This document shows positions 4,327 to 64,000 of a stretch of 64,000 nucleotides of DNA, in pieces (positions within the stretch are counted from its first letter, which is position 1; the number at the start of each line of letters is the position of its first letter). Made by a program: the position numbers and the translations under genes. The notes under the pieces are model-generated. The model saw nothing but the letters and a program-made list of their open reading frames with translations, was not told where the DNA came from and did no database searches. This stretch comes from an uncultured bacterium (lineage in GTDB: Bacteria; Eisenbacteria; RBG-16-71-46), in the NCBI GenBank assembly GCA_964609125.1, contig CAZSQX010000001.1, forward strand, positions 54,459 to 118,458. Direction: 5' to 3'.

Positions 4327-4357
4327 CCCCGCCGGACCCGCAAGGAGGAGACCCGCC

Positions 4358-5733: not shown

Positions 5734-5735
5734 CT

Positions 5736-16196: not shown

Positions 16197-18244
16197 GGCC
16201 GGCGACGGTACACGCGATGGGTCGGGGTGGCGTAGACGCGCTCGAACCGCGCGCTGTCCGCCTCGAGCGCGGTCCACGGGGCGGCGTCCGGGAAGTCCTC
16301 GATCCGGTAGAGCACGTACACCGGGGCCCCGAGCGCGTCCAGGAGCTCGACATCCCGGTCGAGCCCGGTCGCCGGGCCGAAGAGATCCGCCATCACTTCG
16401 CGACGGCGGGCCAGCTCCGAGACGGAGAACGCCGTGCGCTCGGCGGGGTGCGGCGTGCCGGCCAGCAGCCGGCGGCGTCCCTCCACGAGCAGAACGTCCC
16501 GCGAGCGGTTGTCCACGAACACCGCCCGCGCCGGCGTCGCGCTGCGGACCCAGGCGTACAGATCGCGATCGCCCGGGGCGCGGCGCGTCTCCGGCGCCGC
16601 GGCGGCCGACGGATCCGCCAGGAACCCGCGCAGGAACAGGGCGGAAGGCAGGACGAACGCGACACCCACCGCGAGCGCCGCCCCGATGCGGCCGAGCCGT
16701 GCGCGCCACGCCGCCAGCAACCCCGGCAGGCCGGCCGCACCGAGGATCGCGAGCGGCGCGAACACCTGCCAGACGAACTTCACCTCGTTGGATTCCGGGA
16801 GGTGGACGAAGAGCGCGAAGCCGACCATGGCCGCGGTCCAGGCCACGAGCCACACGCCCGCGACCCGGCCCTCGGCGACCACGCGCCGTACGCCGGCCAT
16901 GGCCGCCCACGCGGCCAGCCCGCAGGCCGTGACCAGCGTCCACGGCATCTCCCACCCGAATCGAAGGTAGTGGTGCTCGAACCCCGACCGGTCCGCCTGC
17001 CAGCCGCGCATCATCATCCGGAAGTAGGGCAGCGTGAGCGCGAGCCCTGCCGCGAGCGCGCCCGCCAGCGCCAGCGCGCGACGCGGATCCGCGAGCTCGC
17101 GCCGGCCCGCGCCGAGCAGCGCCAGGGCCGCGCACGCCGCGATTCCCACGGGCACGGCGGACAGGCCGACGACGCTGTGGAAGAGCATCATGCCTGCCGC
17201 GGCGCACGCCGCCACGAGCAGCCAGCGCCACGCCGGCGGCGAACCCTCGGGGCGCTCCTCCCGGCCCGCGGCCAGCCAGCGGCCGCCTGCCCACAGCGAC
17301 ACCAACAGCAGCAGGTAGGCGTAGCCGAGCGCCGTGCCGATCGTGAACTTGTCCCAGCTGTTCACCATCCAGGCGAACGGCGCGCGGAGCTGGTAGAGGA
17401 CGTCGGTGCGGTCCCAGGCGGCGCCTTCCCAGATGCGCGCCACCTCGGCCGCCCCGCGCACCTCGCCCCGGAACGCGCGCAGGAACCAGAGCGGCCACAG
17501 CAGGAGCGCCCCCGCGTTGAGTCCGGTGAGGAGGAGCGGGAGCGCCGGGCGCGCCGTGCGGTGCTCCCGCCACACGAGCCATGACAGCTGCCAGGCCAGC
17601 CACACCTGTGCGCCGATCCACACGACGTTGGCCGTGGCCATGGTCGTGAATGGGCGTGGATCGGCGCGCAACGAGCTCGCGAGCGCGATGAACAGGTTGT
17701 AGAACCACACGTACGCGAGCGGATGTCCGGCGAGGCGCGGGTCCTCGGGCCACACGCCACGCGTCGCGATCTCCCACACGATCCCGGCGTGAACCCACGT
17801 GTCGCTCCGCACCCGCACCCACGGCGAGGCGAGGAGCGGCAGCGCCACGAACGCGGCCGCCGCGACCGCCCACGCCCACGCCGCGCGCGAGGCCGGCGCG
17901 TCGCCGGGGCCGGCGGCGGGCTCCACGAGCGCGCGCGCCTCCCCGCTCGCGAACAGCAGCCAGCTCCCGACGGCCACCAGCCGGGCCGCGGCCGGAAGCG
18001 GCTGTCCGGACTGGAGCAGGGCCCAGCCGAACACGGACGCGGCGAACGGGGCCAGCACCACGCCCAGCGTCCACCGGGTCGCCGCCGGAGCGCCGGGCAG
18101 GAGGAGCCGGACCCACGCCAGTCCGGGGAACACGCCGAGCCAGACGAAGCCCGCCACGTCGCCGGCCGGCCCCGGCACGAACAGCCCCGCGGCCCCGAGC
18201 GCGAACGTGGCCGCGATCGGCCCGAGCCGGCCCGCGAGCCTCAA
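16193..18244 (-). CDS. large polytopic membrane protein, same architecture as 8557..11088 (putative GT-C-like)
   Basis: In-frame TTG at 18244 forms a TTGA overlap with the GT39 stop. The longer in-frame extension up to 19192 is Arg/Gly-rich junk. About 683 aa, multi-TM plus a C-terminal soluble domain. Confidence 0.6.
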   Translation of the reverse strand: MRLAGRLGPIAATFALGAAGLFVPGPAGDVAGFVWLGVFPGLAWVRLLLPGAPAATRWTLGVVLAPFAASVFGWALLQSGQPLPAAARLVAVGSWLLFASGEARALVEPAAGPGDAPASRAAWAWAVAAAAFVALPLLASPWVRVRSDTWVHAGIVWEIATRGVWPEDPRLAGHPLAYVWFYNLFIALASSLRADPRPFTTMATANVVWIGAQVWLAWQLSWLVWREHRTARPALPLLLTGLNAGALLLWPLWFLRAFRGEVRGAAEVARIWEGAAWDRTDVLYQLRAPFAWMVNSWDKFTIGTALGYAYLLLLVSLWAGGRWLAAGREERPEGSPPAWRWLLVAACAAAGMMLFHSVVGLSAVPVGIAACAALALLGAGRRELADPRRALALAGALAAGLALTLPYFRMMMRGWQADRSGFEHHYLRFGWEMPWTLVTACGLAAWAAMAGVRRVVAEGRVAGVWLVAWTAAMVGFALFVHLPESNEVKFVWQVFAPLAILGAAGLPGLLAAWRARLGRIGAALAVGVAFVLPSALFLRGFLADPSAAAAPETRRAPGDRDLYAWVRSATPARAVFVDNRSRDVLLVEGRRRLLAGTPHPAERTAFSVSELARRREVMADLFGPATGLDRDVELLDALGAPVYVLYRIEDFPDAAPWTALEADSARFERVYATPTHRVYRRRP

Positions 18245-19473
18245 GCTCCGCTCCGCCCCGGACCGTGCGCCGGTCCCGGCGCGAGCAGCGCGGACAGCCT
18301 CGGGAATGCGCGCGGGATCGCGAGCGAGGCGAGCACGATGAGCTGCGGCTCGACCGGGATCCGGTAACGCGTCTGCGAGAAGAAGAACGCGTAGAAGGCC
18401 GCGGTCGCGAGCGCCGCGCCGGCGAGCAGCACCCGGCCGCGGCCGGGTCCCGCCCCGCGCGCGGCGCCCGCGACCGCGAGCAGGAGCACGAGGCTGAACC
18501 ATGCCGCGCCCGCGAGCAGCACCGGCAGCCGGTTGAAGCGGTTCTGCGAGGTGACCCGGTCCGGCAGCGGTTGGAAGAAGTGCAGCAACTCGAACGCGTA
18601 GTCGTGGAGGTAGGCCGCAGGTCGTGAGCGCAGGAGCCCCCACTCGCGGGCGACGAGCGCGCGGGGCGAGAGTCCGACGAACGGCGTGCCGGGGGCGTGG
18701 CGGATCCAGCGCGGGCGCGAGATCACGGGGTCGGTGCGCGCGAAGTGGAGCACGGCCTGCGCCTTGCCCATGAACACGCGGTCGCCGCCCTGCCTGCGCA
18801 GCAGCTGCAGCGTGGGGAGAGCGAGCAGCGCGGTGGTCGCCGTGGTCACCGCCAGCGCGCGCGCGAGCGCCCAGCCGGCGCGCCGGACGCGGGCGAGCAG
18901 CCACAGCGCCACGGCCGTGAGCGGCGCGACGATGACCATGTCCGTGAGCCAGCCCGCCACCACGAGCACGCCGAGGAGCGCGGCTCGGGCGACCCCCGGC
19001 CGCAGCGAGAGGTCCCACGCGACGACCATGATGCCGAGCAGCAGCGTCGAGTAGAGCACGGTGGGGTAGAGGAGTCCCGAGACGAACACCAGCGTCGGCG
19101 TGAGCGCCACGAGCACCGCGGCCGCGGCGCCGGCTGCACGGTTCCCGATCCGCGTCGCGAGGCCCACCGCCAGCGTCATCTGCACGGCGCACAAGCCTAC
19201 CTGGACCAGGCGGGCGAAGCGGTGGTTCTCCTCACCTCCGATCGCGTACGAGAGCGCGAGCCAGAGCGGATAGAGCGGCGCGCGTGGCGAGGCCTCACCC
19301 AGGCTCACGCCGTGCAGGATCCGCAGCGCGATCTGCTCGTACTCCGGAGTGTCGCCGAAGTAGACCCGGTCGCCGAGGCTCAGGACGTGCGCGAGGCGCG
19401 CGGCCAGGCCGATCGCGATCCACGTCCAGGGGGCGCTCCACCACGGCGAACCGGTCGGGCGGGGGACGTTCAC
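18241..19473 (-). CDS. GT-C glycosyltransferase, GT39 / ArnT / PMT-like
   Basis: GTG at 19473 in GTGA overlap. The first-loop motif YFGDTPEYEQIALRIL resembles ArnT DExRYAEI. Multi-TM, 410 aa. Confidence 0.75.
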   Translation of the reverse strand: MNVPRPTGSPWWSAPWTWIAIGLAARLAHVLSLGDRVYFGDTPEYEQIALRILHGVSLGEASPRAPLYPLWLALSYAIGGEENHRFARLVQVGLCAVQMTLAVGLATRIGNRAAGAAAAVLVALTPTLVFVSGLLYPTVLYSTLLLGIMVVAWDLSLRPGVARAALLGVLVVAGWLTDMVIVAPLTAVALWLLARVRRAGWALARALAVTTATTALLALPTLQLLRRQGGDRVFMGKAQAVLHFARTDPVISRPRWIRHAPGTPFVGLSPRALVAREWGLLRSRPAAYLHDYAFELLHFFQPLPDRVTSQNRFNRLPVLLAGAAWFSLVLLLAVAGAARGAGPGRGRVLLAGAALATAAFYAFFFSQTRYRIPVEPQLIVLASLAIPRAFPRLSALLAPGPAHGPGRSGA

Positions 19474-24072: not shown

Positions 24073-24327
24073 CCGGTCGGAAAGGTCCGGGAGGGGGGCG
24101 CGGGCGGCGCGAGGGGCCCGCAGCATGGCGGACGGGGCGGGGCACGACTGCGTGAGAAGCCTATCAGCCGCGCGAGTGAACCGCCAAGCTGCGGGGCGCC
24201 CCGCGAGCGCTCCCGGCCGGTGCGTGCGTGCAGGCTGCAACGGCCGGCTCTCGGCGCCGTCGCCGACGCCTGCGCGGGGCGAGCGCGGGCGCGGCCGGGC
24301 GGCCGCGCTGTGATAGCCTGAGACGGC

Positions 24328-37050: not shown

Positions 37051-38625
37051 ATGAGCGGACGTCGGACAGGCCGCGGCGGGCCGGCCGACGCGGGCCGGCC
37101 GGCCCGCGAGCCCGGGGCGTCCGGCGTCGCGGCGAGGGGCGGAGCGGAGGCGGGCGCGGCGGGCACGCTCGCAGCCGTGCCCGGCGTCCTCCTCGCCGCG
37201 GCGCTGCTGCTGCTCGTCTCGCGCGCGGCACTGTGGCTGCTCCAGCCGCTCGCGAGCGAGGACGCGTACATCACGTTCCGCTACGCGCGCAGCCTGGTCG
37301 AGGGGCACGGGCTGGCCTACAACCCGGGCGAGCGCGTGATGGGCTTCACGTCTCTGCCCTGGACGCTCTGGTGCGCGCTCGGCCTGCTCGCCCGCGTGGA
37401 TCCCGTGGTGTGGACACGGGCGACCGGGCTCGCCGCCGACCTCGCCACGCTGTGGCTCGGCTGGCGCATGCTCGCCCCGGCCGCCGGGCGCGCGAGCGCC
37501 GGCGCGTTCGCGCTGTTCTTCGCGGGCTGGCCGCTGTTCGCGGCGGGCGCCGTCTCGGGCCTGGAGGTGAGCGCGCTCCTGGCGCTGCTGTTCGCGTCGG
37601 CGTGGTGGGTCAGCGGCGGCTCACGGCTCGCGGGGCCGGCGCTCGGGCTCCTGGCGCTCCTGCGTCCCGAGGGCCTCGTCGCGGCGCTCTTGCTCCTGCC
37701 CGCCGCCCGCTGGCCGGCGCGGCTCGTGGCGCTGGCCTTGGCGGGGCTCGGGCTCGCCGCGCTCGCGGCGCTCTACGGGACCCCGGTGCCCCAGAGCGTC
37801 CTCGCCAAGGCGGACCTCTACGGCACGCCCGGGCCGTGGGCGGGACGGCACTGGTGGGAGTGGCTGTCTCCGTTCCCGGTCGGGCGCTTCCCGGTGGCGG
37901 CCGAGGGCCAGCACCTGCTCCCGCTCGCGACCGTGTTCCTGGTCTCCGTCGTCCAGGGCGCGCGCACGCTCGCGCCGCAGTGGCGCTCGCCGGCCGCTCT
38001 GGCCGCGGCGGCCGGCGTCGTGGTGTGGCTCGTCTACGTCGCGCTCGGAGTGGCCTACTTCTGGTGGTACCTGGTCGTGCCGCTCGGCGCGCTCGGGCTC
38101 CTCGCCGCGGTCGGCTTCCCGCAGCTCGTGCGCGGCCGGGCGCTGCTCGCGGCCGCGGCGCTCGCGGTGCTCGGCGTGTGGACCGTCGCGATCCCGGTCT
38201 ACGTCGGGCGCGCGCAGGCGGAGGCCGCGGCGTTCGGGCCGGTGGCCGATCACCTCGCGGGCGCGGCGGCGCCCGGCGAGACGGTGCTGCTCGAGCCCAT
38301 CGGCCTCATCGGCTACCGGAGCGGCCTGCGCGTGCTGGACGAGAGCGGGCTCGTGAGCCCGGCGATCGCGGCACGCCGCCGCGAGGGCGCGGGCTGGTAC
38401 GCCGACGTGGTGGCGCGGGAGCGGCCCGAGTGGCTCGTGGTCCGCCCCGAGGTGCTCGAGCGCGGCGTCGCGTTCGCGGGGGCGGGCGCGCCGTTCCGCG
38501 CCACCGCGGAGCGGGACGCGCTGCTCGAGCGCTACCGGGTCGAGCGCCCGGCGCGGCCCGGGCTCGGCCAGGTGCTCGCGATCTACCGGCGGGTGCGGGA
38601 ACCGTCCGCGCCGGGGAGCCGCTGA
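37051..38625 (+). CDS. polytopic membrane protein with acidic first-loop motif (SEDAYITFRYARSL), putative GT-C-like glycosyltransferase/polymerase
   Basis: 524 aa. Many TM helices, then a C-terminal soluble domain. Clean ORF with SD. Confidence 0.6.
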   Translation: MSGRRTGRGGPADAGRPAREPGASGVAARGGAEAGAAGTLAAVPGVLLAAALLLLVSRAALWLLQPLASEDAYITFRYARSLVEGHGLAYNPGERVMGFTSLPWTLWCALGLLARVDPVVWTRATGLAADLATLWLGWRMLAPAAGRASAGAFALFFAGWPLFAAGAVSGLEVSALLALLFASAWWVSGGSRLAGPALGLLALLRPEGLVAALLLLPAARWPARLVALALAGLGLAALAALYGTPVPQSVLAKADLYGTPGPWAGRHWWEWLSPFPVGRFPVAAEGQHLLPLATVFLVSVVQGARTLAPQWRSPAALAAAAGVVVWLVYVALGVAYFWWYLVVPLGALGLLAAVGFPQLVRGRALLAAAALAVLGVWTVAIPVYVGRAQAEAAAFGPVADHLAGAAAPGETVLLEPIGLIGYRSGLRVLDESGLVSPAIAARRREGAGWYADVVARERPEWLVVRPEVLERGVAFAGAGAPFRATAERDALLERYRVERPARPGLGQVLAIYRRVREPSAPGSR

Positions 38626-48440: not shown

Positions 48441-49436
48441 ATGCCGCCGTTCGAGTGCCGACCGCTCCCGTTCGCCGACCGCGCCGACCCGGTCCTGCGC
48501 GGGCGCTGGTGCTGGCCGGCGCTCGCCCCGGGGGCCGCGGTGATGCTGGACGCGTGCTGGCCGATCGCGCCGGGCAGGGGCGGGCTCGGCCTCCTGTGGC
48601 TGGACCTGGCCGCGCTCGCCTGCCTGGCGTGGGCGGCGGTCGGGCCGCGCCGCGCGCCGGCGCGCGACTGGGGCACGCCTCTCGACGGCCGCGTCGCGGC
48701 CGGAATCGTGCTCGCGCTCCTGCACGTGCTCGCCGCGGGCGGCGCGGGCGAGCCCATGCAGGGGCTCCATCAGGTGGCCGCGAGCGGCGCCTGCTACTAC
48801 GCGCTCGCGGCGCGCCTGCGGCACGACCCGCGCGCGCCGGACGCGATCTGGCCTTCGTTCGCGCTCGTGGTGCTGGCGCTCGCCACGTACTCGCTGGCGC
48901 GCGTCACCCAGGGGGCCGACGTGCTCGCCGACGCCGCGCGCGCCGTGGACCTCAACTGGGCGAGCCGTCACGGCCTCGCGAAGGCGCTGCTGCTGGGGGC
49001 GCTCCTGTGCGCGGGGCGGGCGGCCGAGCCCGGCGCGCGCCCGCTGTGGTCGGTCACCGCGCTCACGGGCGGGCTCGTCGCCACGCTGCACCTGGCCACG
49101 AGCGGGCTCGGGCTTGGGATCGCGTCGCTCGCCGGGCTCGACGAGCCGTTCTTCTTCGGCACGAGCGTGCTCGCGTTCCTGCTCCTGTCCGGGTTCTCGC
49201 GGCTCGCCTGGCAGGCCGCGCGCGAGCGGCCCGCGGAGTCGAACCGCTGGCGCGCCGCCGCGCTCGCGTTCCTGTTCGTCGTCGCCATGCTCCTGTTCGG
49301 GGGCTCGAGCGGCGGCGAGGGCGTGCGGGTGCTCACCGCGCTCGCTGGCGCGGCGTCGGTCTCCGCCGCGTTCGCGCCGAGGGCCGCTCGCGCCGGCGCG
49401 CCCGCGGAGGCGGAGCCGGCACGGCGCGCGGCGTGA
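48441..49436 (+). CDS. hypothetical polytopic membrane protein
   Basis: ATG at 48441. Several hydrophobic helices. No recognisable motif. Confidence 0.55.
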   Translation: MPPFECRPLPFADRADPVLRGRWCWPALAPGAAVMLDACWPIAPGRGGLGLLWLDLAALACLAWAAVGPRRAPARDWGTPLDGRVAAGIVLALLHVLAAGGAGEPMQGLHQVAASGACYYALAARLRHDPRAPDAIWPSFALVVLALATYSLARVTQGADVLADAARAVDLNWASRHGLAKALLLGALLCAGRAAEPGARPLWSVTALTGGLVATLHLATSGLGLGIASLAGLDEPFFFGTSVLAFLLLSGFSRLAWQAARERPAESNRWRAAALAFLFVVAMLLFGGSSGGEGVRVLTALAGAASVSAAFAPRAARAGAPAEAEPARRAA

Positions 49437-53849: not shown

Positions 53850-54494
53850 CTACGCGGCGGCGCGCCAGCCGTCGGCGCGGCGCACGTAGAGGTCCATCTC
53901 CTCCCGGGTGAAGCCCTCCCACAGCCGGCCCGTGTCGTGGAGCCGCAGGAACGCGTCCACGACCTCGGGGAAGAACTGGGTGCCGGAGTGGCGGCGCAGC
54001 TCGTCGCAGGCGGCCGCAGCGGGCAGGCCGTGCCGGTACGGCCGCTCCTCGGTCATGGCGTCGTAGGCGGCGCACACCATGATGATGCGCGCCCCGGCCG
54101 GGACTCGGTCACCGCTGAGGTGCCGCGGGTAGCCCTTGCCGTCGGGCCGTTCGTGGTGCGTGTAGACGATCTCCGCCGCGGTTCCGAGCCCGGGGATGTC
54201 GCGCAGCATCTCCCAGCCGATCGTGGGGTGGGTCTGCACCATCGCCCGCTCGCCGGCGTCCAGCGGCCGCGGCGTCTGGACGACGTCGTTGAGGATCGCG
54301 AACCGGCCGAGGTCGTGCAGCATCGCGGCCAGCTCGATGTCGGCGTGCTCGCGCTCCGGCAGGCCGAGCTCGCGGGCCACGCGCACCGCGAAGCGGGAGA
54401 TGCGCAGCGACCGGCCGCGCGTGTGCGGGTCCGCCGCGTCGATGACGTGGGTCAGCACGCGCACCATCCGCATGAGGGTCAGATCGGCGTCCAT
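53850..54494 (-). CDS. stand-alone HD-GYP domain phosphohydrolase (c-di-GMP phosphodiesterase type)
   Basis: HDLGR and HHERPDGKGYP motifs. 214 aa. Confidence 0.8.
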   Translation of the reverse strand: MDADLTLMRMVRVLTHVIDAADPHTRGRSLRISRFAVRVARELGLPEREHADIELAAMLHDLGRFAILNDVVQTPRPLDAGERAMVQTHPTIGWEMLRDIPGLGTAAEIVYTHHERPDGKGYPRHLSGDRVPAGARIIMVCAAYDAMTEERPYRHGLPAAAACDELRRHSGTQFFPEVVDAFLRLHDTGRLWEGFTREEMDLYVRRADGWRAAA

Positions 54495-54664: not shown

Positions 54665-55942
54665 ATGGTGCCCGATCTGTCGTTCGAATTCGCCCCGGAG
54701 GACTCGGAGTCCTTCCAGGGTGCCGGCTCGCCCGAACCCACCGTCCTCGCCTGGCGCTCCGCCGAGGACTGGGGCGACGTGCGCCGCCTCGTCGTGCGCA
54801 CGGACGCGCGCGTCGCCGAGCTCCTGCTCGGCCTCGTGCGGGAGACCGCCGCGGCGCGGCACGACGAGGCCGAGCTGGTGTCCGTGCTCGCCCGGTTCGC
54901 GTTCGAGGCGTTCCCCAACGCCACGCACCACGTGCTCGTCGCGCGCGAGCAGGAGGAGGCGCCGCTGCGCACGCTGACGGCCGCCGCGCGCAACGGCGAC
55001 GGGACGCGGGTGGCACTGTCGCGGACCATCGTCGAACGCGCGCTGCGCGACGGACACGCGCTCCTCTACGTCCACGGCCAGGACCCGGGCAAGGCCAGCG
55101 AGAGCATCGTGCTGTCGCGGCTCGAGACGGCGATCGTGGCACCGCTGCTCGGGAGCAGCGGGCGGGCGCTGGGCGTTGTGCAGCTCGACGTGCGGCGACC
55201 CGCGCGCGGGCGGTTCACGAAGGACGACATGGACATGCTGTCCGTGTTCGCGAGCCAGGCCGGCCTCGCGCTGGAGAACCTCTGGCTCCACCGCCAGCAG
55301 CAGCGCGCGTTCCACTCGACGATCGCTGCGCTGGTGCACTCGCTCACGCTGAAGGATCCCGAGGCGGCGAAGCACAGCGAGCGGGTGAGGGGCGTCTCGC
55401 TCGCGATCGCGGACCGCATGCGGCTCGGCCCGGTCGAGACCGAGGTGGTGTCGGTCGCCGCGCTGCTCCACGACGTCGGCAAGCAGGGCGTGCGCGACGA
55501 GGTGCTGTTCAAGCCCGGGGCGCTCACGACCGAGGAGCGCCAGGAGATGGACCTCCACGCCACGCATACGCAGGGCATCCTCGACATGATCCAGTATCCG
55601 GCCGAGCTGTGGGACGTGCCGCGCATCGCCGCCTATCACCACGAGAAGATCGACGGCTCCGGCCCGTTCGGCATCGCCGGCGACCGGATCCCGCTGGCCG
55701 CGCGCATCATCTCCGTGGCCGACGTGTTCGACGCGCTGGTGAGCGATCGCCCCTACAAGGCGGCGTTGCCGCCCGACGAGGTGTTCGCGGTCCTGGACCG
55801 GGGCCGCGACAAGGACTGGGACCCGGTCGTGATCGACGCGCTCCGCGAGTCCGTGCACGAGGTCCTCGCCGAGGTCTACGGTCGCGACCTCCCGGTCACC
55901 CCGTCGGTCGAGCCCGACGAGCCCATGGAGCGCGCCGCCTAG
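54665..55942 (+). CDS. GAF-domain protein with C-terminal HD-GYP-like domain carrying GPF in place of GYP
   Basis: N-terminal GAF-like region. HDVGK and HHEKIDGSGPFG. Confidence 0.75.
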   Translation: MVPDLSFEFAPEDSESFQGAGSPEPTVLAWRSAEDWGDVRRLVVRTDARVAELLLGLVRETAAARHDEAELVSVLARFAFEAFPNATHHVLVAREQEEAPLRTLTAAARNGDGTRVALSRTIVERALRDGHALLYVHGQDPGKASESIVLSRLETAIVAPLLGSSGRALGVVQLDVRRPARGRFTKDDMDMLSVFASQAGLALENLWLHRQQQRAFHSTIAALVHSLTLKDPEAAKHSERVRGVSLAIADRMRLGPVETEVVSVAALLHDVGKQGVRDEVLFKPGALTTEERQEMDLHATHTQGILDMIQYPAELWDVPRIAAYHHEKIDGSGPFGIAGDRIPLAARIISVADVFDALVSDRPYKAALPPDEVFAVLDRGRDKDWDPVVIDALRESVHEVLAEVYGRDLPVTPSVEPDEPMERAA

Positions 55943-55950
55943 CTGGCCTT

Positions 55951-56039
55951 CGTCGATTCGGCACCACGTCAACCGTGTCGGGCCGGCGTCGATTCGAGGG
56001 TGGGGCGGCGAAGCGGGATCCCCGCGAGTGGATCGATTC
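55951..56039. repeat. direct repeats CGTCGATTCG (x2, 36 nt apart) plus a third TCGATTC in a convergent intergenic region
   Basis: Identical 10-mers at 55951-55960 and 55987-55996, with 14/16 identity including flanks. TCGATTC occurs again at 56033-56039. Nearby there is a hairpin cccagccc(16-nt loop)gggctggg. Confidence 0.3.
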
Positions 56040-56131
56040 CGGCCCGGGCCGGCGGTGATGCGGAATCAGTGAACGCTGCCCAGCCCTGCTCCCGAATGAT
56101 CCGGGCTGGGACCGACGTCCGGGGGGGGTGA

Positions 56132-57205
56132 CTACGCCGCGGGGTCCTGAGTCGCGTAGCTCTCGAACGTCGCGCGCTCCACCGCGTGCTCGTACGCCTC
56201 GTCTCCCGTGATTACCTCGCGGCGCACGAGGTCCATGAGCACGGCGTCCAGGCTCTGCATCCCCGAGCGCTGCCCCGCCTGGATCGCGCTGACCAGCTTG
56301 TGCGTGTTGCCCTGGCGGATCATCGAGCTCACCGCGTGCGTGTTCACGAGCACCTCCGCCGCCACCAGCCGCCCGCTCCGATCCGCCTTGCGCACCAGCT
56401 GCTGCGACACCACCAGCCGCAGCGTGTCCGCCATCATCGTCCGCACCTGGTCCTGCTTCCGCGCCGGGAAGACGTTCACGATCCGGTCCACGCAGCGCAC
56501 GGCGCCGTTCGTGTGCAGCGTGCCCAGCACCATGATCCCCGTCTCGGCTGCGGTCAGCGCCAGCGCGATGGTCTCCCGGTCGCGCATCTCGCCCACCATG
56601 ACCACGTCCGGATCCTCGCGGACCACGCTGCGCAGCGCTTCGGCGAACGAACTGGCGTGCGTGCCGATCTCGCGCTGCGTCACCACGCACTGGCGGTAGC
56701 CGTGCACGAACTCGATCGGGTCCTCCACCGTGATGATGTGGCCGCGGCGGGTCGCATTGAGGTGCGAGATCATGCCCGCCAGCGTCGTGGACTTGCCCGA
56801 GCCCGTCGGCCCGGTGACGAGCACGAGGCCCTTGCCCACGGCCAGCATCTGGGGGACCACGGCCGGCAGGTTCAACGACTCGAGCGAGGGGGGCTCGGCG
56901 GGGATCACGCGGAACGCCGCGGCCAGGCCGGTGGCGTGCCGGTAGACGTTGACCCGGAACCGGCCGGCCACCTCGGACTCGTAGGCGAAGTCCACGTTCT
57001 GGTCGCGGGCCAGCACCTCGCGCTGCTCCGGCGCCATGAATTCCTCGAGGAAGTCGTTCATGTCCGCGGCCGTGACGTCGCGGAACCGCACCGGCTCGAG
57101 CACGCCGTTCAGCCGGATGCGGATCGGCTGGCCCGAGACCAGGTGCACGTCGGAGCCGCCCTGCTTCACCGCCAGCTCGAGGAACGCGTCGATGCGGTTG
57201 GTCAT
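56132..57205 (-). CDS. PilT/PilU-family type IV pilus retraction ATPase
   Basis: ATG at 57205. Walker A GPTGSGKST. EDPIEF. C-terminal MIRQG...GMQSLD. Confidence 0.85.
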   Translation of the reverse strand: MTNRIDAFLELAVKQGGSDVHLVSGQPIRIRLNGVLEPVRFRDVTAADMNDFLEEFMAPEQREVLARDQNVDFAYESEVAGRFRVNVYRHATGLAAAFRVIPAEPPSLESLNLPAVVPQMLAVGKGLVLVTGPTGSGKSTTLAGMISHLNATRRGHIITVEDPIEFVHGYRQCVVTQREIGTHASSFAEALRSVVREDPDVVMVGEMRDRETIALALTAAETGIMVLGTLHTNGAVRCVDRIVNVFPARKQDQVRTMMADTLRLVVSQQLVRKADRSGRLVAAEVLVNTHAVSSMIRQGNTHKLVSAIQAGQRSGMQSLDAVLMDLVRREVITGDEAYEHAVERATFESYATQDPAA

Positions 57206-57207
57206 CG

Positions 57208-58308
57208 TCAGGCCGCCCGGAACTCGCCGTTGACGATGCCCAGCAGCTCGGGCCGGGTCAGGAACGGAGCGAATCCCCACTTGTCCTCGGCGCGCAGGAA
57301 CGCCTCGTCGGGGTCGATCTCGCCGGCGCGCACGAGCGCGAGCAGCGACTGGTCCATGAGCTGCATCCCCTGCCGCTTGCCGGTGGTGATCGCGCCCGGG
57401 ATCTGGAACGACTTGCCCTCGCGGATCATCTGCTGCACCGCGACGTTCACCACCAGCACCTCGTGCGCCGCGCGCCGCCCGCGCCCGTCCGCGCAGCGGA
57501 CCAGTTCCTGGCACACGACCGCCTTGAGGTTCTCGGCGAGCGAATGGCGCACCTGCGCGTGGTTCTCGGAAGGATGCGCGTCCACGATGCGGTCGATCGT
57601 CTGCGCGGCGCCGCGCGTGTGCAGCGTGCCCAGCACGAGGTGGCCCGTCTCGGCCGCCTCCAGCGCGAGCGTGACGGTCTCGGGGTCGCGCAGCTCGCCC
57701 ACGAGGATCACGTCGGGATCCTCGCGCAGGGCCGCGCGCAGCCCGGCCTCGAACGAGGCCACGTGCACGCCCAGCTCGCGCTGGATGATCTGGCAGCGCC
57801 CGCTCGGGTGCACGAACTCGATTGGATCCTCGAGCGTGAGGATGTTGAGCGACTCGCGTTCGTTGATCTCGCGGATCATCGCCGCCAGCGTCGTGGACTT
57901 GCCGCTGCCGGTCGTGCCGGTGATCAGCACCAGGCCGTTCGAGAGGCGCGTGAACTGGGAGATCACGCGCGGCAGTCCGAGCTCGGCCAGCGTCGGCACC
58001 TGGTCCGGGATGATGCGGCAGATGGCCGAGACCCCGGCGCGATGCCGGACGACGTTGATCCGGAAACGCCCGAGCGTCTCCGCGGTGTAGCCGAGGTCCA
58101 CGGTGCCGGCGTGCTCGAGGCGGGTCCACTGCTCGTTCGTCATGATCTCGCGGATCAGGTCCCGGCACTCCTGTTCCGTGAGCGTGCGGTACTGGATCGG
58201 CATCAGGTCGTCGTCCAGCCGGACGAGCGGTGGCAGCCCGACCACCAAGTGGATGTCCGATCCGCCCTGCTGCCGGCCGATCTCGAGGAACGCGTCGAGG
58301 CGAGGCAT
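57208..58308 (-). CDS. pilT: PilT-family twitching-motility ATPase
   Basis: Walker A GTTGSGKST. LEDPIEF. C-terminal MIREGK...GMQLMDQSL. Its stop is 2 nt before the downstream paralogue's ATG. Confidence 0.85.
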   Translation of the reverse strand: MPRLDAFLEIGRQQGGSDIHLVVGLPPLVRLDDDLMPIQYRTLTEQECRDLIREIMTNEQWTRLEHAGTVDLGYTAETLGRFRINVVRHRAGVSAICRIIPDQVPTLAELGLPRVISQFTRLSNGLVLITGTTGSGKSTTLAAMIREINERESLNILTLEDPIEFVHPSGRCQIIQRELGVHVASFEAGLRAALREDPDVILVGELRDPETVTLALEAAETGHLVLGTLHTRGAAQTIDRIVDAHPSENHAQVRHSLAENLKAVVCQELVRCADGRGRRAAHEVLVVNVAVQQMIREGKSFQIPGAITTGKRQGMQLMDQSLLALVRAGEIDPDEAFLRAEDKWGFAPFLTRPELLGIVNGEFRAA

Positions 58309-58320
58309 GGCGGGCGTCGG

Positions 58321-60717
58321 CTACATCGCGGCCCGGACCGCCTCCAGCATCGCGAGCGCGCTGGCGGGACGGTCCTGCGGGTGGCGCGACATCGCGCGCA
58401 TGACGAGGTCGTTGACCGCGACGGGGATGCCGGCGGCGACGCTGCAAAGCGGCGGCACCGTGGCCTCGAGGTGCTGGAACAGCACGTTCACCGCGTTGGC
58501 TCCCGAGAACGGCTGCTTGCCGGACATCGCCTCGTAGAGCACGACGCCGAGCGAATAGAGGTCCGAGCGCGCGTCCACGTCGCTGCCGGTGATCTGCTCC
58601 GGCGAGATGTACTCCGGCGTGCCGACCAAGATGCCGCTCTGGGTGAGCCGCGAGTGCGAGGAGTGGCTCACCGAGGCGAGTCCGAAGTCCACGATCTTGA
58701 GCTGGTCGCCGTCGCCGACGAGCAGGTTGGCCGGCTTGATGTCGCGATGGTGGATGCCCGTGGCGTGCGCGGCCGACAGGCCGGCCAGCGCCTGCTCGGC
58801 GATGTGCATCGCACGCGCGGGGGACAGCGGACCCTCCTGGCGCAGCAGCGCCCCGAGGTCGCGGGCGGCGAAGTGCTCCATGGAGATCGCGTGCGAACCC
58901 TCGAGGTCGAGCAGGTCGTGGATGCGGATGACGTTCGGGTGGGTGATCCGCCGCGTCAGCTTCAGCTCCTGCACGAAGCGCTTGATCATGGTCGGGTCCA
59001 GCGACAGCTGGGGCGAGAGGATCTTGAGGACCAGCGTCTCCTTCACCAGCACGTCCTCGACCAGGTAGACGGTGCCGAAGCCGCCGCCGCCGATCTTCTG
59101 CACCACCCGGAAGCGCCCGACGAGCTCGGTGCCGGGCGCGAGCTTCTGGAAGTTGAGCTTGACCGGCTCGCTCGGCACCGGCGTGGCGCCGGAGCCGGCC
59201 GGTGCGGTGCCCGCCGGGGTCGCGCCGCCGTGCGCCGGAGACGCCGGCGTGACCGGCGCCCCGAGCCCGCCGGGGCCCGAGCTCGGCTCGCCGTCGACGC
59301 GGCGCCCGCCGCGGACGGACATGGGCCGTTGCGCCTGCCGGGTGATGCGGACGCCGGCGCGGTCGAGCACCGCGACGATGACCTGGCGCGCGGACTCCGG
59401 CAGCTCGCGGTGGACGAGCGAGCTCAAGGCCTGCAGCGCCTCGCGACGCACCTCCACGTCGGACGACTCGGCGAGGCGCGACAGCGGCTCGACCACGCTC
59501 TCGCTGCCGAGCGCGCCGAGCGCCCGCACGCACAGCGGCAGCGCACGCGCGTCGCGGCCCATCATGCGCAGCAGGGGATCCACCGCCGCGGGGTCGCCGG
59601 TCTTGCCGAGCGCGTCCACCGCCCGCTCGCGCACCCACCAGTCCTCGTCCTCGAGCGCTTCGATGAGCGCCGGCACGGCGCGCGGGTCGGGGACCGTGTT
59701 CAGGATCTCGATCGCGTACCGGCGGGCGAACTCGTCGGGATCCCGGGTCAGATCGAGCACCGCGTCCACGACCTTGGGGCCGCCAAGCGTGCCGAGCGCG
59801 TCGGCGGCGCGCACGCGCACCCACCAATCGGCGTCGCGCAGCGCGTTCACGAGGTCCTTGATGGCGTCCGGCGTGACGACCTGGTTCAGCACCTCGACCG
59901 CGCCGCGACGGACGTATTCCGACTCGTCCTTGAGCGCGTCGAGCAGGTTCGGGACGGCGCGCACGTCGTTGAGCCCGACCAGCGCCTCGATGGCCGCGGT
60001 CTGGACCTTGAGGTCCTGGTCGCGCAACCGCGTGCACAGCGCCGGGATCGCCTCCTTGGCCTGCATGCGGACCACGCTGCGCACGGCCTCGAGCCGGACG
60101 GCGCCGTTCTCGTCCTTCACCAGCTTCGTCATGGCGGCGTTCGCGGCCGGGCCCGGAAGCCGGGCGAGCAGGCGCGCGACGTGCAGCCGGATCCACCATT
60201 CGGGGTGCGTCGTCAGCTCGAGCGCGTCCGCGAGGATGCTCGCGTCGGCGATCCGTTCGAGGATCCGGAACGCGCTGCTGCGCGCCTCCTTGCCGAGGTT
60301 CGGCAGAACGCGCAGCAGGGCGGTCGGGTGCACGCGCGCGGACTGCGCCTCGAGGATCGCCTCGAGCCGCGCCCGCGAAATGCGCTCGTCCGCGTACAGC
60401 GCGAGGAGCTGCGTCGCGTCGTAGGTCGTGGCGCGGCTCAGCACGAGCGCGGCGGCGTCGACCGTGTGCGTGCTCGGGGCGCGAAGCCCCTCGAGGAACG
60501 CCGGCAGGGTGTCCTGTCCGAGCAACGCCTGGAGCACGTCGAGCGTGGCCGGCGTGGCCGGCCCGGACTCCAGCGCGCGGAAGATCGAGTGCACGGCCGC
60601 CGCGCCCATCGCCTCGAGCTGGGCACGCGCCTCGACGAACTGGGAGTCGGACAGACGCGACGGCGACTGGAGCTGGCGCACGTGGCGGCTGGCCTGGAAG
60701 CGCTTGAGGATCTCCAT
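58321..60717 (-). CDS. HEAT-repeat (PBS-lyase-like) domain fused to a Hanks-type Ser/Thr protein kinase
   Basis: ATG at 60717 (MEILKRF). At least five HEAT-like repeats (DADWWVRVRAADALG, DEDWWVRERAVDALG...). The kinase half has GGGGFGTVY, VLKIL, HRDIKPANLL, DFG and GTPEYISPE. Confidence 0.8.
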   Translation of the reverse strand: MEILKRFQASRHVRQLQSPSRLSDSQFVEARAQLEAMGAAAVHSIFRALESGPATPATLDVLQALLGQDTLPAFLEGLRAPSTHTVDAAALVLSRATTYDATQLLALYADERISRARLEAILEAQSARVHPTALLRVLPNLGKEARSSAFRILERIADASILADALELTTHPEWWIRLHVARLLARLPGPAANAAMTKLVKDENGAVRLEAVRSVVRMQAKEAIPALCTRLRDQDLKVQTAAIEALVGLNDVRAVPNLLDALKDESEYVRRGAVEVLNQVVTPDAIKDLVNALRDADWWVRVRAADALGTLGGPKVVDAVLDLTRDPDEFARRYAIEILNTVPDPRAVPALIEALEDEDWWVRERAVDALGKTGDPAAVDPLLRMMGRDARALPLCVRALGALGSESVVEPLSRLAESSDVEVRREALQALSSLVHRELPESARQVIVAVLDRAGVRITRQAQRPMSVRGGRRVDGEPSSGPGGLGAPVTPASPAHGGATPAGTAPAGSGATPVPSEPVKLNFQKLAPGTELVGRFRVVQKIGGGGFGTVYLVEDVLVKETLVLKILSPQLSLDPTMIKRFVQELKLTRRITHPNVIRIHDLLDLEGSHAISMEHFAARDLGALLRQEGPLSPARAMHIAEQALAGLSAAHATGIHHRDIKPANLLVGDGDQLKIVDFGLASVSHSSHSRLTQSGILVGTPEYISPEQITGSDVDARSDLYSLGVVLYEAMSGKQPFSGANAVNVLFQHLEATVPPLCSVAAGIPVAVNDLVMRAMSRHPQDRPASALAMLEAVRAAM

Positions 60718-60773
60718 GCGCGGCTCGTTCGTCCTTCCTTGGCTGTACGCGGACGGGGGACCGTCCGCGCGTC

Positions 60774-61367
60774 TCAGCTCAGCGTGGGGCGCTGCAGGAC
60801 CAGCCACAGCACGACGGCGCCGATGGCGAGACCCACCAGCACGCCGAGCGCGATGCCGATCCAGGCCGGGACCGCCCGCTGCTTTACGTGGGGCGAGGCC
60901 GGTGCCGCCGGCGACTGCACCGCGACCACCCGGGGCGAACCGCTCCGCCTCTCCTGCTCGAGGATGCTCCCGATCTCGGCCCGCGAAAGCACGACCGTGT
61001 GGCCCAGCGTGTCGCTCACGGCGCTCACCACGGGCCCGCTGCGCTCGGCGCTGCGTCGGTCGGCCTCGTAGCCCACCCACAGCGTGTACTTCCCGAAGCG
61101 GATGACGTCGTTGTTGTGGACCAGGGACGTGTTCACCATCTGGTCGTTCACGAACGTGCCGTTCGCGCTGCCCAGGTCCACGACCTGGTACTCGCCCTGC
61201 GAGGTACGCTCGAGCCGGAAGTGGTCGCGCGAGACACCAGGATTGTCCACGTAGACGTCGGCGCCCGGGTCGCGGCCGACGCTGATGACCGGCTTCTCGA
61301 AGGTGTAGTTGCGCACCGGGCGTCCCATGAGGGAGAGCCGGAGCTTGATGACCTGACCGTCGGACAT
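60774..61367 (-). CDS. FHA-domain protein with C-terminal transmembrane anchor
   Basis: AGGAG lies 7 nt upstream of ATG 61367. FHA signature VISVGRD...SRDHFRLE...VVDLGSANGTFVN. C-terminal helix WIGIALGVLVGLAIGAVVLWLV. Confidence 0.75.
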   Translation of the reverse strand: MSDGQVIKLRLSLMGRPVRNYTFEKPVISVGRDPGADVYVDNPGVSRDHFRLERTSQGEYQVVDLGSANGTFVNDQMVNTSLVHNNDVIRFGKYTLWVGYEADRRSAERSGPVVSAVSDTLGHTVVLSRAEIGSILEQERRSGSPRVVAVQSPAAPASPHVKQRAVPAWIGIALGVLVGLAIGAVVLWLVLQRPTLS

Positions 61368-61594
61368 GGTCGGACTCCTGAGGCGGCGGCCGTCCTGGCC
61401 GCCGGTTGGCGTGGGAGCAGCCCCACGGGCCGGGATTCCCCGCTGGCATCGGCGCACGGACGCGGCGACTTGAGGGGGGAGTGCGGTCCGGGAGCGCCCC
61501 CGGGCGTGCTATCGTGCCCCCTCGCCTCGAACGCCCATCCGGGCCTGCGGCCTCGCGCGCCGCGGCCCGCCCCGATGCCCCGGAGGAGCCCGTC

Positions 61595-64000
61595 GTGACG
61601 CCACAGCCCCGTCTCCAGGGCCTCGCGCCCCGCCGTACGACCCCGCGACCCGACCCCGCCCGCGGCCTGGCCGCCGCGATGGTGGTCTGCCTGGCGGCGC
61701 TTCCGGGTTCGGCCTCGGCCAGCCCTCGCCCGCTCGAGCCGCTGGACGGCGGCGAGATCGCGCACGCGCTCCGGCGGCTCCAGGTCGTGGGTTCCGCGCT
61801 CTACGTGGCGGCCCACCCGGACGACGAGAACACGGCGCTGCTTGCTTGGCTGACCCACGTGAAGGGGGTGAGGACCGCCTACCTCTCGATGACCCGTGGC
61901 GACGGCGGCCAGAACCTGATCGGGGAGGAGCTGGGCGCGGCCCTGGGCGTCATCCGCACGCAGGAGCTGCTCGCCGCGCGGCGCATGGACGGAGCCGAGC
62001 AGCTGTTCACGCGCGCGCTCGACTTCGGCTATTCCAAGCGCGCCGACGAGACGCTGGCGTTCTGGGAGCACGACTCGGTGCTCGCCGACGTGGTCTGGGC
62101 CATCCGCCGGTTCCGGCCCGACATCGTCATCACGCGCTTCCCGCCGGACTCGACCGCGGGCCACGGGCACCACACGGCGTCCTCGATCCTGGCCGGCGAG
62201 GCGTTCGCGGCGGCCGCCGACCCCGAGCGCTTTCCCCTGCAGCTCGACCGGGTGTCGCCGTGGCGCGCGAGGCGGCTGTTCTGGAACGTGTTCACGTTCG
62301 GCCGCATCCCGAGCGTGGACTCGAGCTGGCTCGTGGTGGACGTGGGCGACTACGAGCCGCGCCTGGGCCGCTCGATGAGCGAGCTGGCCGGCCTTTCGCG
62401 CAGCAACCACAAGAGCCAGGGCTTCGGCGCGCCCGAGCGGCGCGGGACGCTCCTTAACCATCTCGCGCTCCGCGCCGGGGAGCCGGCGAGGCGCGACCCG
62501 TTCGAGGGCGTGGACCTCACCTGGAAGCGCTTCCGCGGCGGCGACGCCGTGGCGACGCTGCTCGCCCAGGCCGAGGGCGCGTTCGACGTGCGCCGGCCCG
62601 AGGCCGTGCTCCCGGTGCTCGCGCGCGCCCACGCCGCGATGCGGAAGCTCCCCGACGACCCGCTCGTCGAGCGACGGCGCCGAGAGCTCGAGCGAGTGAT
62701 GGCCTCGTGCGCCGGTCTGTGGCTGGAAGCGGTCTCGCTCCGACCGTCGGTGACCCCCGGGGAGATGGTGACGGTCGCCACCTCGGTGCTCGTTCGCCGC
62801 CCCGCCGCGGTGACGCTGGAGTCCGTGACGGTGGAGGAGCAGTCGCGGTCCGGCTCGCGCACGCTCGAGCCGAACCGCGCGGCGCCGGACACGTTTCGCT
62901 TCACGCCGGCGCGCGAGCTCGCGGTGACGCAGCCCTACTGGCTCGCGCTGCCCGCCGGCCGCGGGCTCTCGCGCGTCGCCGACCCCGCGGACCTCGGGAA
63001 CCCCGAGAGCCGCCCGGCGCTCGCGGCGCGGTTCCGGCTCTCGCTCGCCGGGGAGCCGGTCGAGTTCGAGCTGCCCGTGGCGCATCGCTGGACCGACCCC
63101 GTCCGGGGCGAGCGCTGGCGCCTGATGGAGGTCTCGCCGCCCGCCACGCTCGCGTTCGACCAGGGATTCCAGCTCTTCGACGTCGGCGGCGCCCCGCGCC
63201 AGGTGCGCGTCACGGTGCGCGCGAACCGGGCGAAGCTCTCGGGCGCGGTGCGCCTCGGGGTCCCGTCCGGCTGGGACGTGCGCCCGGCGCGGTTCCCCGT
63301 CGCGATCGAGGGCGCGGGTGCGGAGCAGACGGTGGAGTTCACGGTGACGCCGGGGTCCGCGGGCGGTGCGGCACGCGCCACGATCGAGGTGGATGGCCGC
63401 GACTGGTCATACTCCGGGCAGCGCATCGACCACGAGCACATTCCGGTTCAGACGCTTTACCAGCCCGCCGAGCTGAAGCTCGTGCGCGCCGAGCTCGCCA
63501 CGCGCGCGTCGCGCGTGGGCTATATCGCCGGCTCGGGCGACGAGCTCCCGGCGGCGCTCCGGCAGATGGGATCGAGCGTGACGCTCCTCTCCGACGACGA
63601 CGTCGCATACGGCGACCTGTCCGGCTTCGACACGATCGTGACCGGCGTGCGGGCCTACAACACGCGCCCGCGGCTGCGGGTGCTGCAGCCCCGGCTGCTC
63701 GACTGGGTCGCCGCCGGCGGCGCGCTGGTGATGCAGTACGTGACCACGTCGGACGGCCCGGTGGACTACCTGGGCCCGAAGCCGATGCGGCTCGGACGCG
63801 AACGCGTTTCGGTCGAGGACGCGCCGGTCACGTTCCTCAAGCCCGACCACCCGCTGCTCGCGGCCCCCAACGCGCTCGGTCCCGAAGACTTCGAGGGCTG
63901 GGTGCAGGAGCGCGGCATCTACTTCGCCGCCACTTGGGACCCGGACTACGAGGCGCTGCTCGGGAGCCGCGACCCCGGCGAACCTTCCCGCGAGGGCGGA
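61595..64000 (+). CDS. LmbE/PIG-L-family deacetylase with long C-terminal extension (3' end outside window)
   Basis: Not in the ORF track because no stop is reached. GGAGG lies 8 nt before GTG 61595. Signal-peptide-like MVVCLAALPGSASA. AAHPDDENTALLAW (HPDDE motif) and TAGHGHHTASS. The frame stays open to the window edge by my translation. Confidence 0.65.
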   Translation, partial: MTPQPRLQGLAPRRTTPRPDPARGLAAAMVVCLAALPGSASASPRPLEPLDGGEIAHALRRLQVVGSALYVAAHPDDENTALLAWLTHVKGVRTAYLSMTRGDGGQNLIGEELGAALGVIRTQELLAARRMDGAEQLFTRALDFGYSKRADETLAFWEHDSVLADVVWAIRRFRPDIVITRFPPDSTAGHGHHTASSILAGEAFAAAADPERFPLQLDRVSPWRARRLFWNVFTFGRIPSVDSSWLVVDVGDYEPRLGRSMSELAGLSRSNHKSQGFGAPERRGTLLNHLALRAGEPARRDPFEGVDLTWKRFRGGDAVATLLAQAEGAFDVRRPEAVLPVLARAHAAMRKLPDDPLVERRRRELERVMASCAGLWLEAVSLRPSVTPGEMVTVATSVLVRRPAAVTLESVTVEEQSRSGSRTLEPNRAAPDTFRFTPARELAVTQPYWLALPAGRGLSRVADPADLGNPESRPALAARFRLSLAGEPVEFELPVAHRWTDPVRGERWRLMEVSPPATLAFDQGFQLFDVGGAPRQVRVTVRANRAKLSGAVRLGVPSGWDVRPARFPVAIEGAGAEQTVEFTVTPGSAGGAARATIEVDGRDWSYSGQRIDHEHIPVQTLYQPAELKLVRAELATRASRVGYIAGSGDELPAALRQMGSSVTLLSDDDVAYGDLSGFDTIVTGVRAYNTRPRLRVLQPRLLDWVAAGGALVMQYVTTSDGPVDYLGPKPMRLGRERVSVEDAPVTFLKPDHPLLAAPNALGPEDFEGWVQERGIYFAATWDPDYEALLGSRDPGEPSREGG

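Follow-up and report, generated by a model that had tools for sequence, protein, structure and literature searches.

Control of the motors that retract type IV pili is known mainly from effectors of cyclic di-GMP (c-di-GMP), Pil-Chp, polarity GTPases and the coupling between PilT and PilU, and in Xanthomonas, the HD-GYP protein RpfG is linked through PilZ to PilT/PilU. In the H1 type VI secretion system (T6SS) of Pseudomonas aeruginosa, the PpkA kinase, Fha1 and the PppA phosphatase form a threonine-phosphorylation pathway that controls an ATPase-driven envelope machine. Myxococcus xanthus encodes, in the tandem MXAN_6705/MXAN_6706, PilT paralogs beyond canonical PilT that retain all ATPase boxes, and deletion of MXAN_6706 causes a partial defect in S-motility, a precedent for auxiliary retraction motors (PMC13584747). 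Here we analyze a stretch of 64,000 nucleotides (hereafter, the window; contig CAZSQX010000001.1 of assembly GCA_964609125.1, positions 54,459 to 118,458 of the forward strand) from an uncultured bacterium of the Eisenbacteria, in which genes for an FHA protein and a HEAT-repeat serine/threonine (Ser/Thr) kinase are followed by genes for two PilT-family ATPases, denoted PilTa and PilTb. In full-text searches of the literature, no description emerged of a genetic link between PilT-family ATPases and a Ser/Thr kinase or an FHA protein; the parts are known, the conserved kinase-PilT-PilT wiring is new, and the module is uncharacterized. Our preferred reading, to which we assign a probability of roughly 50%, is that Ser/Thr phosphorylation, read by the FHA protein, controls an auxiliary pair of PilT-type retraction motors at a type IVa pilus machine.

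The high GC content of the window (about 74%) creates many spurious frames in the raw list of open reading frames (ORFs); genes were called by direct translation combined with the GC bias at third codon positions (GC3). The four operon ORFs are consecutive on the minus strand, translate cleanly into 197, 798, 366 and 357 amino acids and share a strong GC3 coding signal:

60774..61367, minus strand: FHA adaptor, 197 amino acids (PF00498; GR/SRDH/NGT; C-terminal transmembrane helix)
59359..60717, minus strand: HEAT/PBS-like alpha-solenoid of the kinase protein, residues 1-453 (HEAT_2; AlphaFold2 model)
59128..59358, minus strand: Pro/Ala/Gly/Thr-rich linker of the kinase protein, about residues 454-530, predicted to be disordered (low predicted local distance difference test score, pLDDT; 15% identity between phyla)
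58321..59127, minus strand: Hanks-type Ser/Thr kinase domain, residues 531-798, with the stop codon (Pkinase; invariant catalytic residues)
57208..58308, minus strand: PilTa, PilT-family ATPase paralog, 366 amino acids (TIGR01420; bootstrap clade; motifs)
56132..57205, minus strand: PilTb, second PilT-family ATPase paralog, 357 amino acids (TIGR01420; motifs; tight PilTa-PilTb gap)

The genes are separated by 56 (60718-60773), 12 (58309-58320) and 2 nucleotides (57206-57207), and translation, GC3 and domain profiles reproduce exactly the order, coordinates and gaps given in an earlier reading of the letters without database searches (hereafter, the sequence-only reading). Its statement that pilus structural genes are lacking also holds for the window: Pfam searches with nearly every called gene detected no pilin, PilB, PilC, PilM-Q or secretin, and a motif search found no prepilin motif in any frame; the Pfam checks likewise revealed no T6SS gene and no PP2C gene in the window. 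The operon is delimited on one side by a PIG-L deacetylase gene in divergent orientation (from 61679, plus strand) and on the other by a convergent GAF-HD-GYP gene (54665-55942, plus strand). A scan of positions 55800-61800 for sigma-70 promoters and intrinsic terminators detected none, an outcome that is uninformative for a non-model phylum with 72% GC.

The kinase was used as the query in a genome scan (one genome per species), in which the best 80 loci were kept and flanks of up to 10 kb were examined. These loci comprise about 20 of the Eisenbacteria type (44-79% identity, one labeled Krumholzibacteriia) and about 60 from Gammaproteobacteria (35-42% identity over the full length), the latter including members of Chromatiales, Thioalkalispiraceae and Steroidobacteraceae as well as the cultured Ectothiorhodospira marina DSM 241 and E. 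mobilis DSM 4180, which makes the module experimentally accessible. Gene order was determined by tblastn with the window proteins, loci with 2.4 kb or more of sequence past the kinase being counted as informative (n=72). The order kinase, PilTa, PilTb, with all three on one strand, is found in 71 of the 72 informative loci, spanning at least two phyla (18/18 Eisenbacteria-type and 53/54 gammaproteobacterial loci). The gap between PilTa and PilTb is at most 30 nucleotides in 66 of 70 loci, and the stop codon of the kinase and the start codon of PilTa overlap or lie within 5 nucleotides of each other in 32 of 70. The flanking genes are unrelated between lineages (PIG-L/HD-GYP versus f13/FHA versus mrp...metG), so that three layouts can be distinguished:

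Type A, Eisenbacteria: PIG-L gene, then FHA (transmembrane)-kinase-PilTa-PilTb, then convergent GAF-HD-GYP and HD-GYP
Type B, Chromatiales: f13-kinase-PilTa-PilTb-soluble FHA protein
Type C, Steroidobacteraceae: kinase-PilTa-PilTb alone, between mrp/apbC and metG

Given that the same order persists in 71 of 72 loci despite the changed flanks, the linkage is not a matter of chance, and the retention of the linkage in relatives, on which the sequence-only reading had staked its case, is borne out. Its broader proposal of a coupling of FHA, kinase and PilT proteins stands in part: kinase, PilTa and PilTb are near-invariant, whereas FHA is lineage-specific and is missing, along with the HD-GYP partners, from the Steroidobacteraceae-type version of the module. 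Every Eisenbacteria-type locus (21/21) has the FHA gene immediately ahead of the kinase; in Gammaproteobacteria, no locus has it upstream (0/52), and in 12/50 it follows PilTb. When all flanking ORFs of the examined loci were clustered without bias, no other universally conserved partner emerged. The invariant core thus consists of the kinase, PilTa and PilTb, with FHA as an accessory, and these three genes are intact, constrained and co-inherited as one unit in at least two phyla. With synteny nearly perfect in both Eisenbacteria-type and gammaproteobacterial genomes, functional coupling of the three is very likely.

Among the other neighbors, a conserved protein of about 160 amino acids, f13, is encoded directly upstream of the kinase in locus L049 (6434-6913, plus strand) and in about 27 other gammaproteobacterial loci. 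Its only match, to DUF6812, is below the threshold (19.9 bits versus a cutoff of 27.1), and it may be a lineage-specific fourth component of the Chromatiales/Ectothiorhodospiraceae-type module. The genes metG, mrp/apbC, purM, purN, nth and rnfB were considered as partners and rejected as housekeeping neighbors in Gammaproteobacteria.

The product of 58321-60717 contains five HEAT_2 stretches (Pfam, E=1.5e-55) and a Pkinase domain at residues 537-785 (E=2.2e-47), which among NCBIfam models scores highest with the PknB/Stk1 family (278.6 bits, below the equivalog cutoff). The motifs VLKIL, HRDIKPANLL and DFG, from which the sequence-only reading had deduced an intact kinase, are all present, and K565, E584, H657-R658-D659, K661, N664 and D677-F678-G679 are invariant in an alignment of 13 diverse orthologs; the catalytic motifs and the activation-loop threonine T692 (RLTQSG) are conserved across 17 Eisenbacteria-type and 56 gammaproteobacterial sequences. 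Judging by sequence, then, the catalytic residues are intact and under constraint. In an AlphaFold2 model (mean pLDDT 81.7), residues 1-453 form a solenoid and residues 460-518 a disordered linker, followed by a kinase fold. The solenoid consists of continuous helix pairs from H2 to H453, with about 29 helices in 31-residue PBS/HEAT-like repeats modeled at a pLDDT of about 85-95, whereas the linker residues 460-518, with several TP/SP dipeptides, fall below 50. With no transmembrane segment, the protein is predicted to be soluble and cytoplasmic.

Between the phyla, the HEAT region (residues 171-465) is 42% identical and the kinase domain 44%, compared to 15% for the linker. Conservation of the repeats to the level of the catalytic domain, but not of the linker, implies a conserved binding partner. 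A search of PDB sequences with the HEAT domain yielded no functional clue, the nearest solved sequences being alphaRep HEAT-like binders, designed from this class of repeat, and generic HEAT proteins; the alphaRep likeness fits the presumed role of the solenoid as a partner-binding scaffold. More than 100 full-length relatives of the kinase were identified at 54-85% identity, and identical copies occur in metagenome contigs from JGI, NCBI and Logan; among named relatives, the closest are metagenome-assembled genomes (MAGs) of Candidatus Eisenbacteria (Eiseniibacteriota). The NCBI MAG records of two orthologs, P0019 and P0026 (72-73% identical), bear the labels 'Methylomirabilota' and 'Verrucomicrobiae', probably through errors of binning or taxonomy, as every other close relative is from Eisenbacteria.

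A kinase combined with P-loop ATPases could also be taken for an anti-phage or conflict system, and the kinase domain indeed matches PADLOC kinase models such as PD-T4-6, mad6 and PglW. These matches do not, however, reach beyond the generic kinase domain (residues ~530-797); for the ATPases, only P-loop stretches match, and the FHA protein has no match. Given that PADLOC-DB 2.0 produced only such generic-domain hits and no full-length component matches, assignment to a known defense system was rejected. Unlike a mobile defense island, the Steroidobacteraceae module is stably located between the housekeeping genes mrp/apbC and metG, and the GC content of the module is the same as that of its surroundings, so that we consider a role in defense highly improbable.

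Against TIGR01420 ('PilT/PilU family type 4a pilus ATPase'; curated cutoff 319.1 bits), both ATPases score above the threshold, PilTa with 431.6 bits and PilTb with 423.1. PilTa scores 302 bits against P. aeruginosa PilT (PaPilT; 3jvu) and 249 bits against the PilU chain 9n32, and PilTb 303 and 248 bits, respectively; the label 'PilT/PilU' attached to the second ATPase in the sequence-only reading therefore has to be corrected towards PilT. A PilU identity of either protein was rejected on account of these lower PilU scores and because PilTb branches together with PaPilT or adjacent to it in the tree. Aligning 141 PilTa and PilTb sequences with PaPilT gave identities between phyla of 52% for PilTa and 50% for PilTb, compared to 44-47% between PilTa and PilTb and 46-50% between either of them and PaPilT. 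We constructed a custom neighbor-joining tree on Kimura distances with 100 bootstraps, in which the sole canonical reference was PaPilT, rebuilt from search alignments. PilTa of both phyla formed a single clade in 100/100 bootstraps, and a lineage-specific duplication was recovered in 0/100; PilTb of both phyla grouped in 63/100, the placement of PilTb relative to canonical PilT being weak with one reference. This pattern implies that the paralogs split before the module spread and that the module was inherited or transferred as a unit. PilTa and PilTb are thus old, distinct paralogs of canonical PilT rather than a PilT/PilU pair.

The Walker A lysine, the Asp box and the Walker B glutamate are retained in both PilTa and PilTb. 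The His box is complete in PilTa; PilTb keeps the second histidine, and the first is replaced by isoleucine (TGIMVLGTLHT in the window), which is the PilTb consensus in both phyla. In PaPilT, the equivalent substitution H222A reduces twitching, slows retraction and increases falling off the machine, without killing the motor (PMC10187167). The AIRNLIRE motif, strongly conserved among PilT proteins but not retained in PilU and located at the PilT-PilC interface in an AlphaFold 3 model (bioRxiv 10.1101/2025.10.30.685630), is degenerate in both window paralogs (AVQQMIRE in PilTa and AVSSMIRQ in PilTb) and is more divergent still in gammaproteobacterial PilTa (AiakLiqt). By these motifs, PilTa and PilTb belong to the PilT family, yet count as neither textbook PilT nor PilU. 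The arrangement resembles the PilT/PilU tandems of P. aeruginosa and Vibrio cholerae in that two genes for PilT-family hexameric ATPases are adjacent and presumably co-transcribed and Walker A, Asp box and Walker B are kept, but differs in that the second gene is not PilU, AIRNLIRE is degenerate in both proteins rather than in one, and PilTb lacks the first His-box histidine. Moreover, a HEAT-repeat Ser/Thr kinase, not described for pilT-pilU, invariably precedes the pair here. The M. xanthus tandem is similar in being a conserved pair of extra PilT paralogs; its members are 58-66% identical to their own PilT, compared to 46-50% between PilTa or PilTb and PaPilT, and the literature found reports no linkage of MXAN_6705/6706 to a kinase or FHA gene.

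The simplest account of the locus would be an ordinary pilT-pilU pair lying beside an unrelated kinase and an FHA gene, without any functional coupling. Tandems of pilT and pilU are common, and the IMG labels of the four proteins are generic (FHA protein, serine/threonine-protein kinase and, for both ATPases, simply 'twitching motility protein PilT'). This account is contradicted by the order kept in 71/72 loci from at least two phyla amid unrelated flanks, by the overlapping or nearly abutting start and stop codons and by the lack of PilU likeness in either ATPase; furthermore, even the gammaproteobacterial copies are merely 46-50% identical to PaPilT, itself gammaproteobacterial. We therefore give it hardly any credence.

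A more substantial alternative, which the sequence-only reading had also raised, is co-option of the two PilT-like ATPases by a machine other than the pilus, in the envelope or the cytoplasm, with the HEAT-kinase as a dedicated regulator or adaptor in a self-contained module. No pilus gene adjoins the module in any lineage among the flanks examined, the only invariant partner is the HEAT-kinase rather than a pilus component, the AIRNLIRE motif that contacts PilC is degenerate in both paralogs and both phyla, and PilTa forms a separate deep clade, all of which favors co-option. Against it, the canonical pilT and pilU genes, as in P. aeruginosa, are also usually not linked to pilus structural genes. 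Furthermore, both ATPases exceed the TIGR01420 cutoff by more than 100 bits, their identity to PaPilT extends over the full length, and no alternative machine is encoded nearby. The tandem M. xanthus PilT paralogs, too, affect pilus motility (PMC13584747). On balance, we regard co-option as possible but unlikely; if the ATPases do prove to be non-pilus proteins, the module would represent a new use of the PilT motor.

The remaining gene of the operon encodes a protein with an N-terminal FHA domain (PF00498, E=5.6e-19, residues ~28-92), in which the phosphothreonine-binding residues GR, SRDH and NGT are all present. Among the 21 Eisenbacteria-type orthologs, GR and SRxH are kept in every one and NGT in 20. 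The window protein extends about 6 residues past its only transmembrane helix, which is C-terminal, and a hydrophobic C-terminal 19-mer exceeds the cutoff in 20/21 of these orthologs, that of L017 being just under it. The protein is accordingly predicted to be tail-anchored, with the FHA domain in the cytoplasm; the gammaproteobacterial FHA proteins beside the module are soluble. A weak match to DotU is below the cutoff (16.4 versus 27 bits). The best NCBIfam matches of the FHA domain include OdhI and FhaB/FipA, below the equivalog cutoffs, so that the pair invites comparison with mycobacterial PknB and its FHA partners FhaA, FhaB/FipA and GarA/OdhI, with which it shares the PknB/Stk1-type kinase domain and the OdhI/FhaB-like FHA domain. 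The activation-loop motif T-Q-S-G, moreover, resembles the phosphothreonine pair of PknB. The kinase described here differs from PknB in lacking PASTA domains and a transmembrane segment, and motor ATPases take the place of cell-wall or metabolic proteins as its partners.

A further analogy is the PpkA/Fha1/PppA pathway, which likewise combines a Hanks kinase, an FHA protein and a motor ATPase; the shared logic would be that FHA reads a phosphothreonine mark and thereby assembles or activates a motor. The differences are the lack of T6SS genes and of a PP2C gene in the operon, the PilT-type rather than ClpV-type ATPases, and the kinase itself, which is a cytoplasmic protein with a HEAT solenoid, whereas PpkA is a membrane protein with a periplasmic domain.

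Under our preferred reading, phosphorylation control of an auxiliary retraction-motor pair, the cytoplasmic Hanks kinase with its long HEAT-like solenoid would be co-expressed with PilTa and PilTb as a signaling-plus-motor module. The solenoid most likely docks onto the ATPases, given that its conservation equals that of the catalytic domain and that no proteins other than the ATPases are universally co-conserved. The kinase would autophosphorylate at the activation-loop threonine, in the TP-rich linker or at both, and may also phosphorylate the ATPases, and the resulting phosphothreonine marks would be read by FHA adaptors. In the organism of the window, whose FHA protein is predicted to be held in the inner membrane by its tail anchor, phosphorylation would recruit the kinase-ATPase complex to the membrane or release it from there, the membrane site being the base of a type IVa pilus machine presumed to be encoded elsewhere in the genome, and recruitment or release would switch the auxiliary retraction motor on or off. 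PilTb could be a natural counterpart of PaPilT H222A, that is, a slower and less processive motor. The histidine replacement in PilTb, together with the divergent PilC-contact motif in both proteins, makes it likelier that the two act conditionally or as accessory motors, or combine in a mixed PilTa/PilTb assembly, than that they serve as the housekeeping retraction ATPase.

Several observations weigh against this reading. Neither the window nor the approximately 80 flanks examined contain pilus genes, and the degenerate AIRNLIRE motif in both ATPases argues against direct engagement of PilC. Clade-specific conserved Ser/Thr residues number none in PilTa and one, T176, in PilTb, which is too thin to lend sequence support to the ATPases as kinase substrates. 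The operon lacks a partner PP2C phosphatase. The absence of FHA from the Steroidobacteraceae-type module implies that phosphothreonine reading by FHA is not essential to the core mechanism, and in the sole exception to the conserved order, L039 (6818-13052, from an uncultured Thiotrichales MAG), the kinase is followed by rpsF, rplI and dnaB.

Beyond the borders of the operon lie a presumed promoter region and genes for HD-GYP proteins, which recur as neighbors:

61368..61678, no strand: divergent intergenic region between the FHA and PIG-L genes, the presumed promoter region of the operon as suggested by the gene boundaries
54665..55942, plus strand: convergent GAF + HD-GYP-type protein, 425 amino acids, with GPF for GYP (HD_5, GAF_2)
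53850..54494, minus strand: stand-alone HD-GYP protein, 214 amino acids, with HHERPDGKGYP (HD_5)

The GAF-HD-GYP protein matches HD_5 (Pfam, E=6.6e-31) and GAF_2 (E=4.6e-08) and has GPF where GYP is expected (HHEKIDGSGPFG); the 214-residue protein (HD_5, E=1e-33) contains the canonical motif. The two may constitute a pair of a degenerate and an active protein. In most Eisenbacteria-type loci, a homolog of the GAF-HD-GYP protein follows PilTb and an HD-GYP gene lies beside the module. Five gammaproteobacterial loci (L026, L031, L042, L044 and L078) encode, divergently and adjoining the module, a 658-amino-acid FHA-GAF-HD-GYP fusion (4186-6162, minus strand, in L044), which provides an independent tie between phosphothreonine reading and HD-GYP enzymes. 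HD-GYP proteins are thus a recurrent additional neighbor in both phyla and, by synteny, a possible signaling partner, one on which the sequence-only reading is silent. For our preferred reading, this arrangement suggests that the phosphothreonine signal could be tied to c-di-GMP turnover. The Xanthomonas RpfG link is comparable in associating an HD-GYP c-di-GMP phosphodiesterase with PilT-family motors; neither PilZ nor GGDEF was seen in the present module, in which the connection would instead use phosphothreonine and FHA.

The same neighbors raise the prospect that information flows in the opposite direction, such that the load on the ATPases or their conformation is transmitted through the HEAT solenoid to the kinase, and onwards via phosphothreonine to FHA or FHA-HD-GYP proteins and c-di-GMP, the module acting as a surface sensor or mechanosensor. 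Apart from the fusions and the HD-GYP genes flanking the Eisenbacteria module, the lack of conserved candidate phosphosites on PilTa is compatible with such a reversal, and PilT has been proposed as a surface-sensing component in P. aeruginosa (PMC10187167). HD-GYP and FHA are, however, absent from the Steroidobacteraceae-type module, so that this output cannot be universal, and we consider the reversed flow improbable.

The questions touched by the module are live ones, namely, when and how hard bacteria retract type IV pili and what role the many 'extra' PilT paralogs play. At somewhat less than even odds, we expect the module to embody either a new and widespread form of PilT-motor control, in which a HEAT-Hanks kinase is dedicated to a heteromeric PilT pair and phosphothreonine read by FHA or FHA-HD-GYP proteins gates motor engagement and couples it to c-di-GMP, or else a new PilT-derived machine distinct from type IV pili.

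The divergent PIG-L/LmbE-type deacetylase gene (61679-64000, plus strand) is unusually long and runs past the end of the window; in L001, the protein has 814 amino acids. It has a signal-peptide-like N-terminus and a weak match to NPCBM_assoc, and its divergent position is kept in many Eisenbacteria-type loci.

The rest of the window contains a polysaccharide-biosynthesis cluster (1-39738), glycogen genes, aspartokinase, MsrB and other housekeeping genes. Six ORFs of 289-843 amino acids, most of them within the polysaccharide cluster, have a strong coding signal and no Pfam match at E<=1e-4:

4..873, plus strand: ORF without Pfam match
8557..11088, plus strand: ORF without Pfam match
16193..18244, minus strand: ORF without Pfam match
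18241..19473, minus strand: ORF without Pfam match
37177..38625, plus strand: ORF without Pfam match
48441..49436, plus strand: ORF without Pfam match

No confident gene call was made in 23400-24320 and 39740-40420; a weak ORF of 125 amino acids is present at 23498-23872 and one of 90 amino acids at 40422-40691. The polysaccharide cluster includes two asparagine-synthase paralogs (11091-13031, plus strand, and 21467-23392, minus strand), two LPG_synthase_TM proteins (4726-5733 and 19470-20405) and two Polysacc_synt flippase-like genes, along with a DegT aminotransferase, many GT2/GT4 genes, a Bac_transf initiating transferase, UDP-glucose dehydrogenase and mannose-1-phosphate guanylyltransferase.

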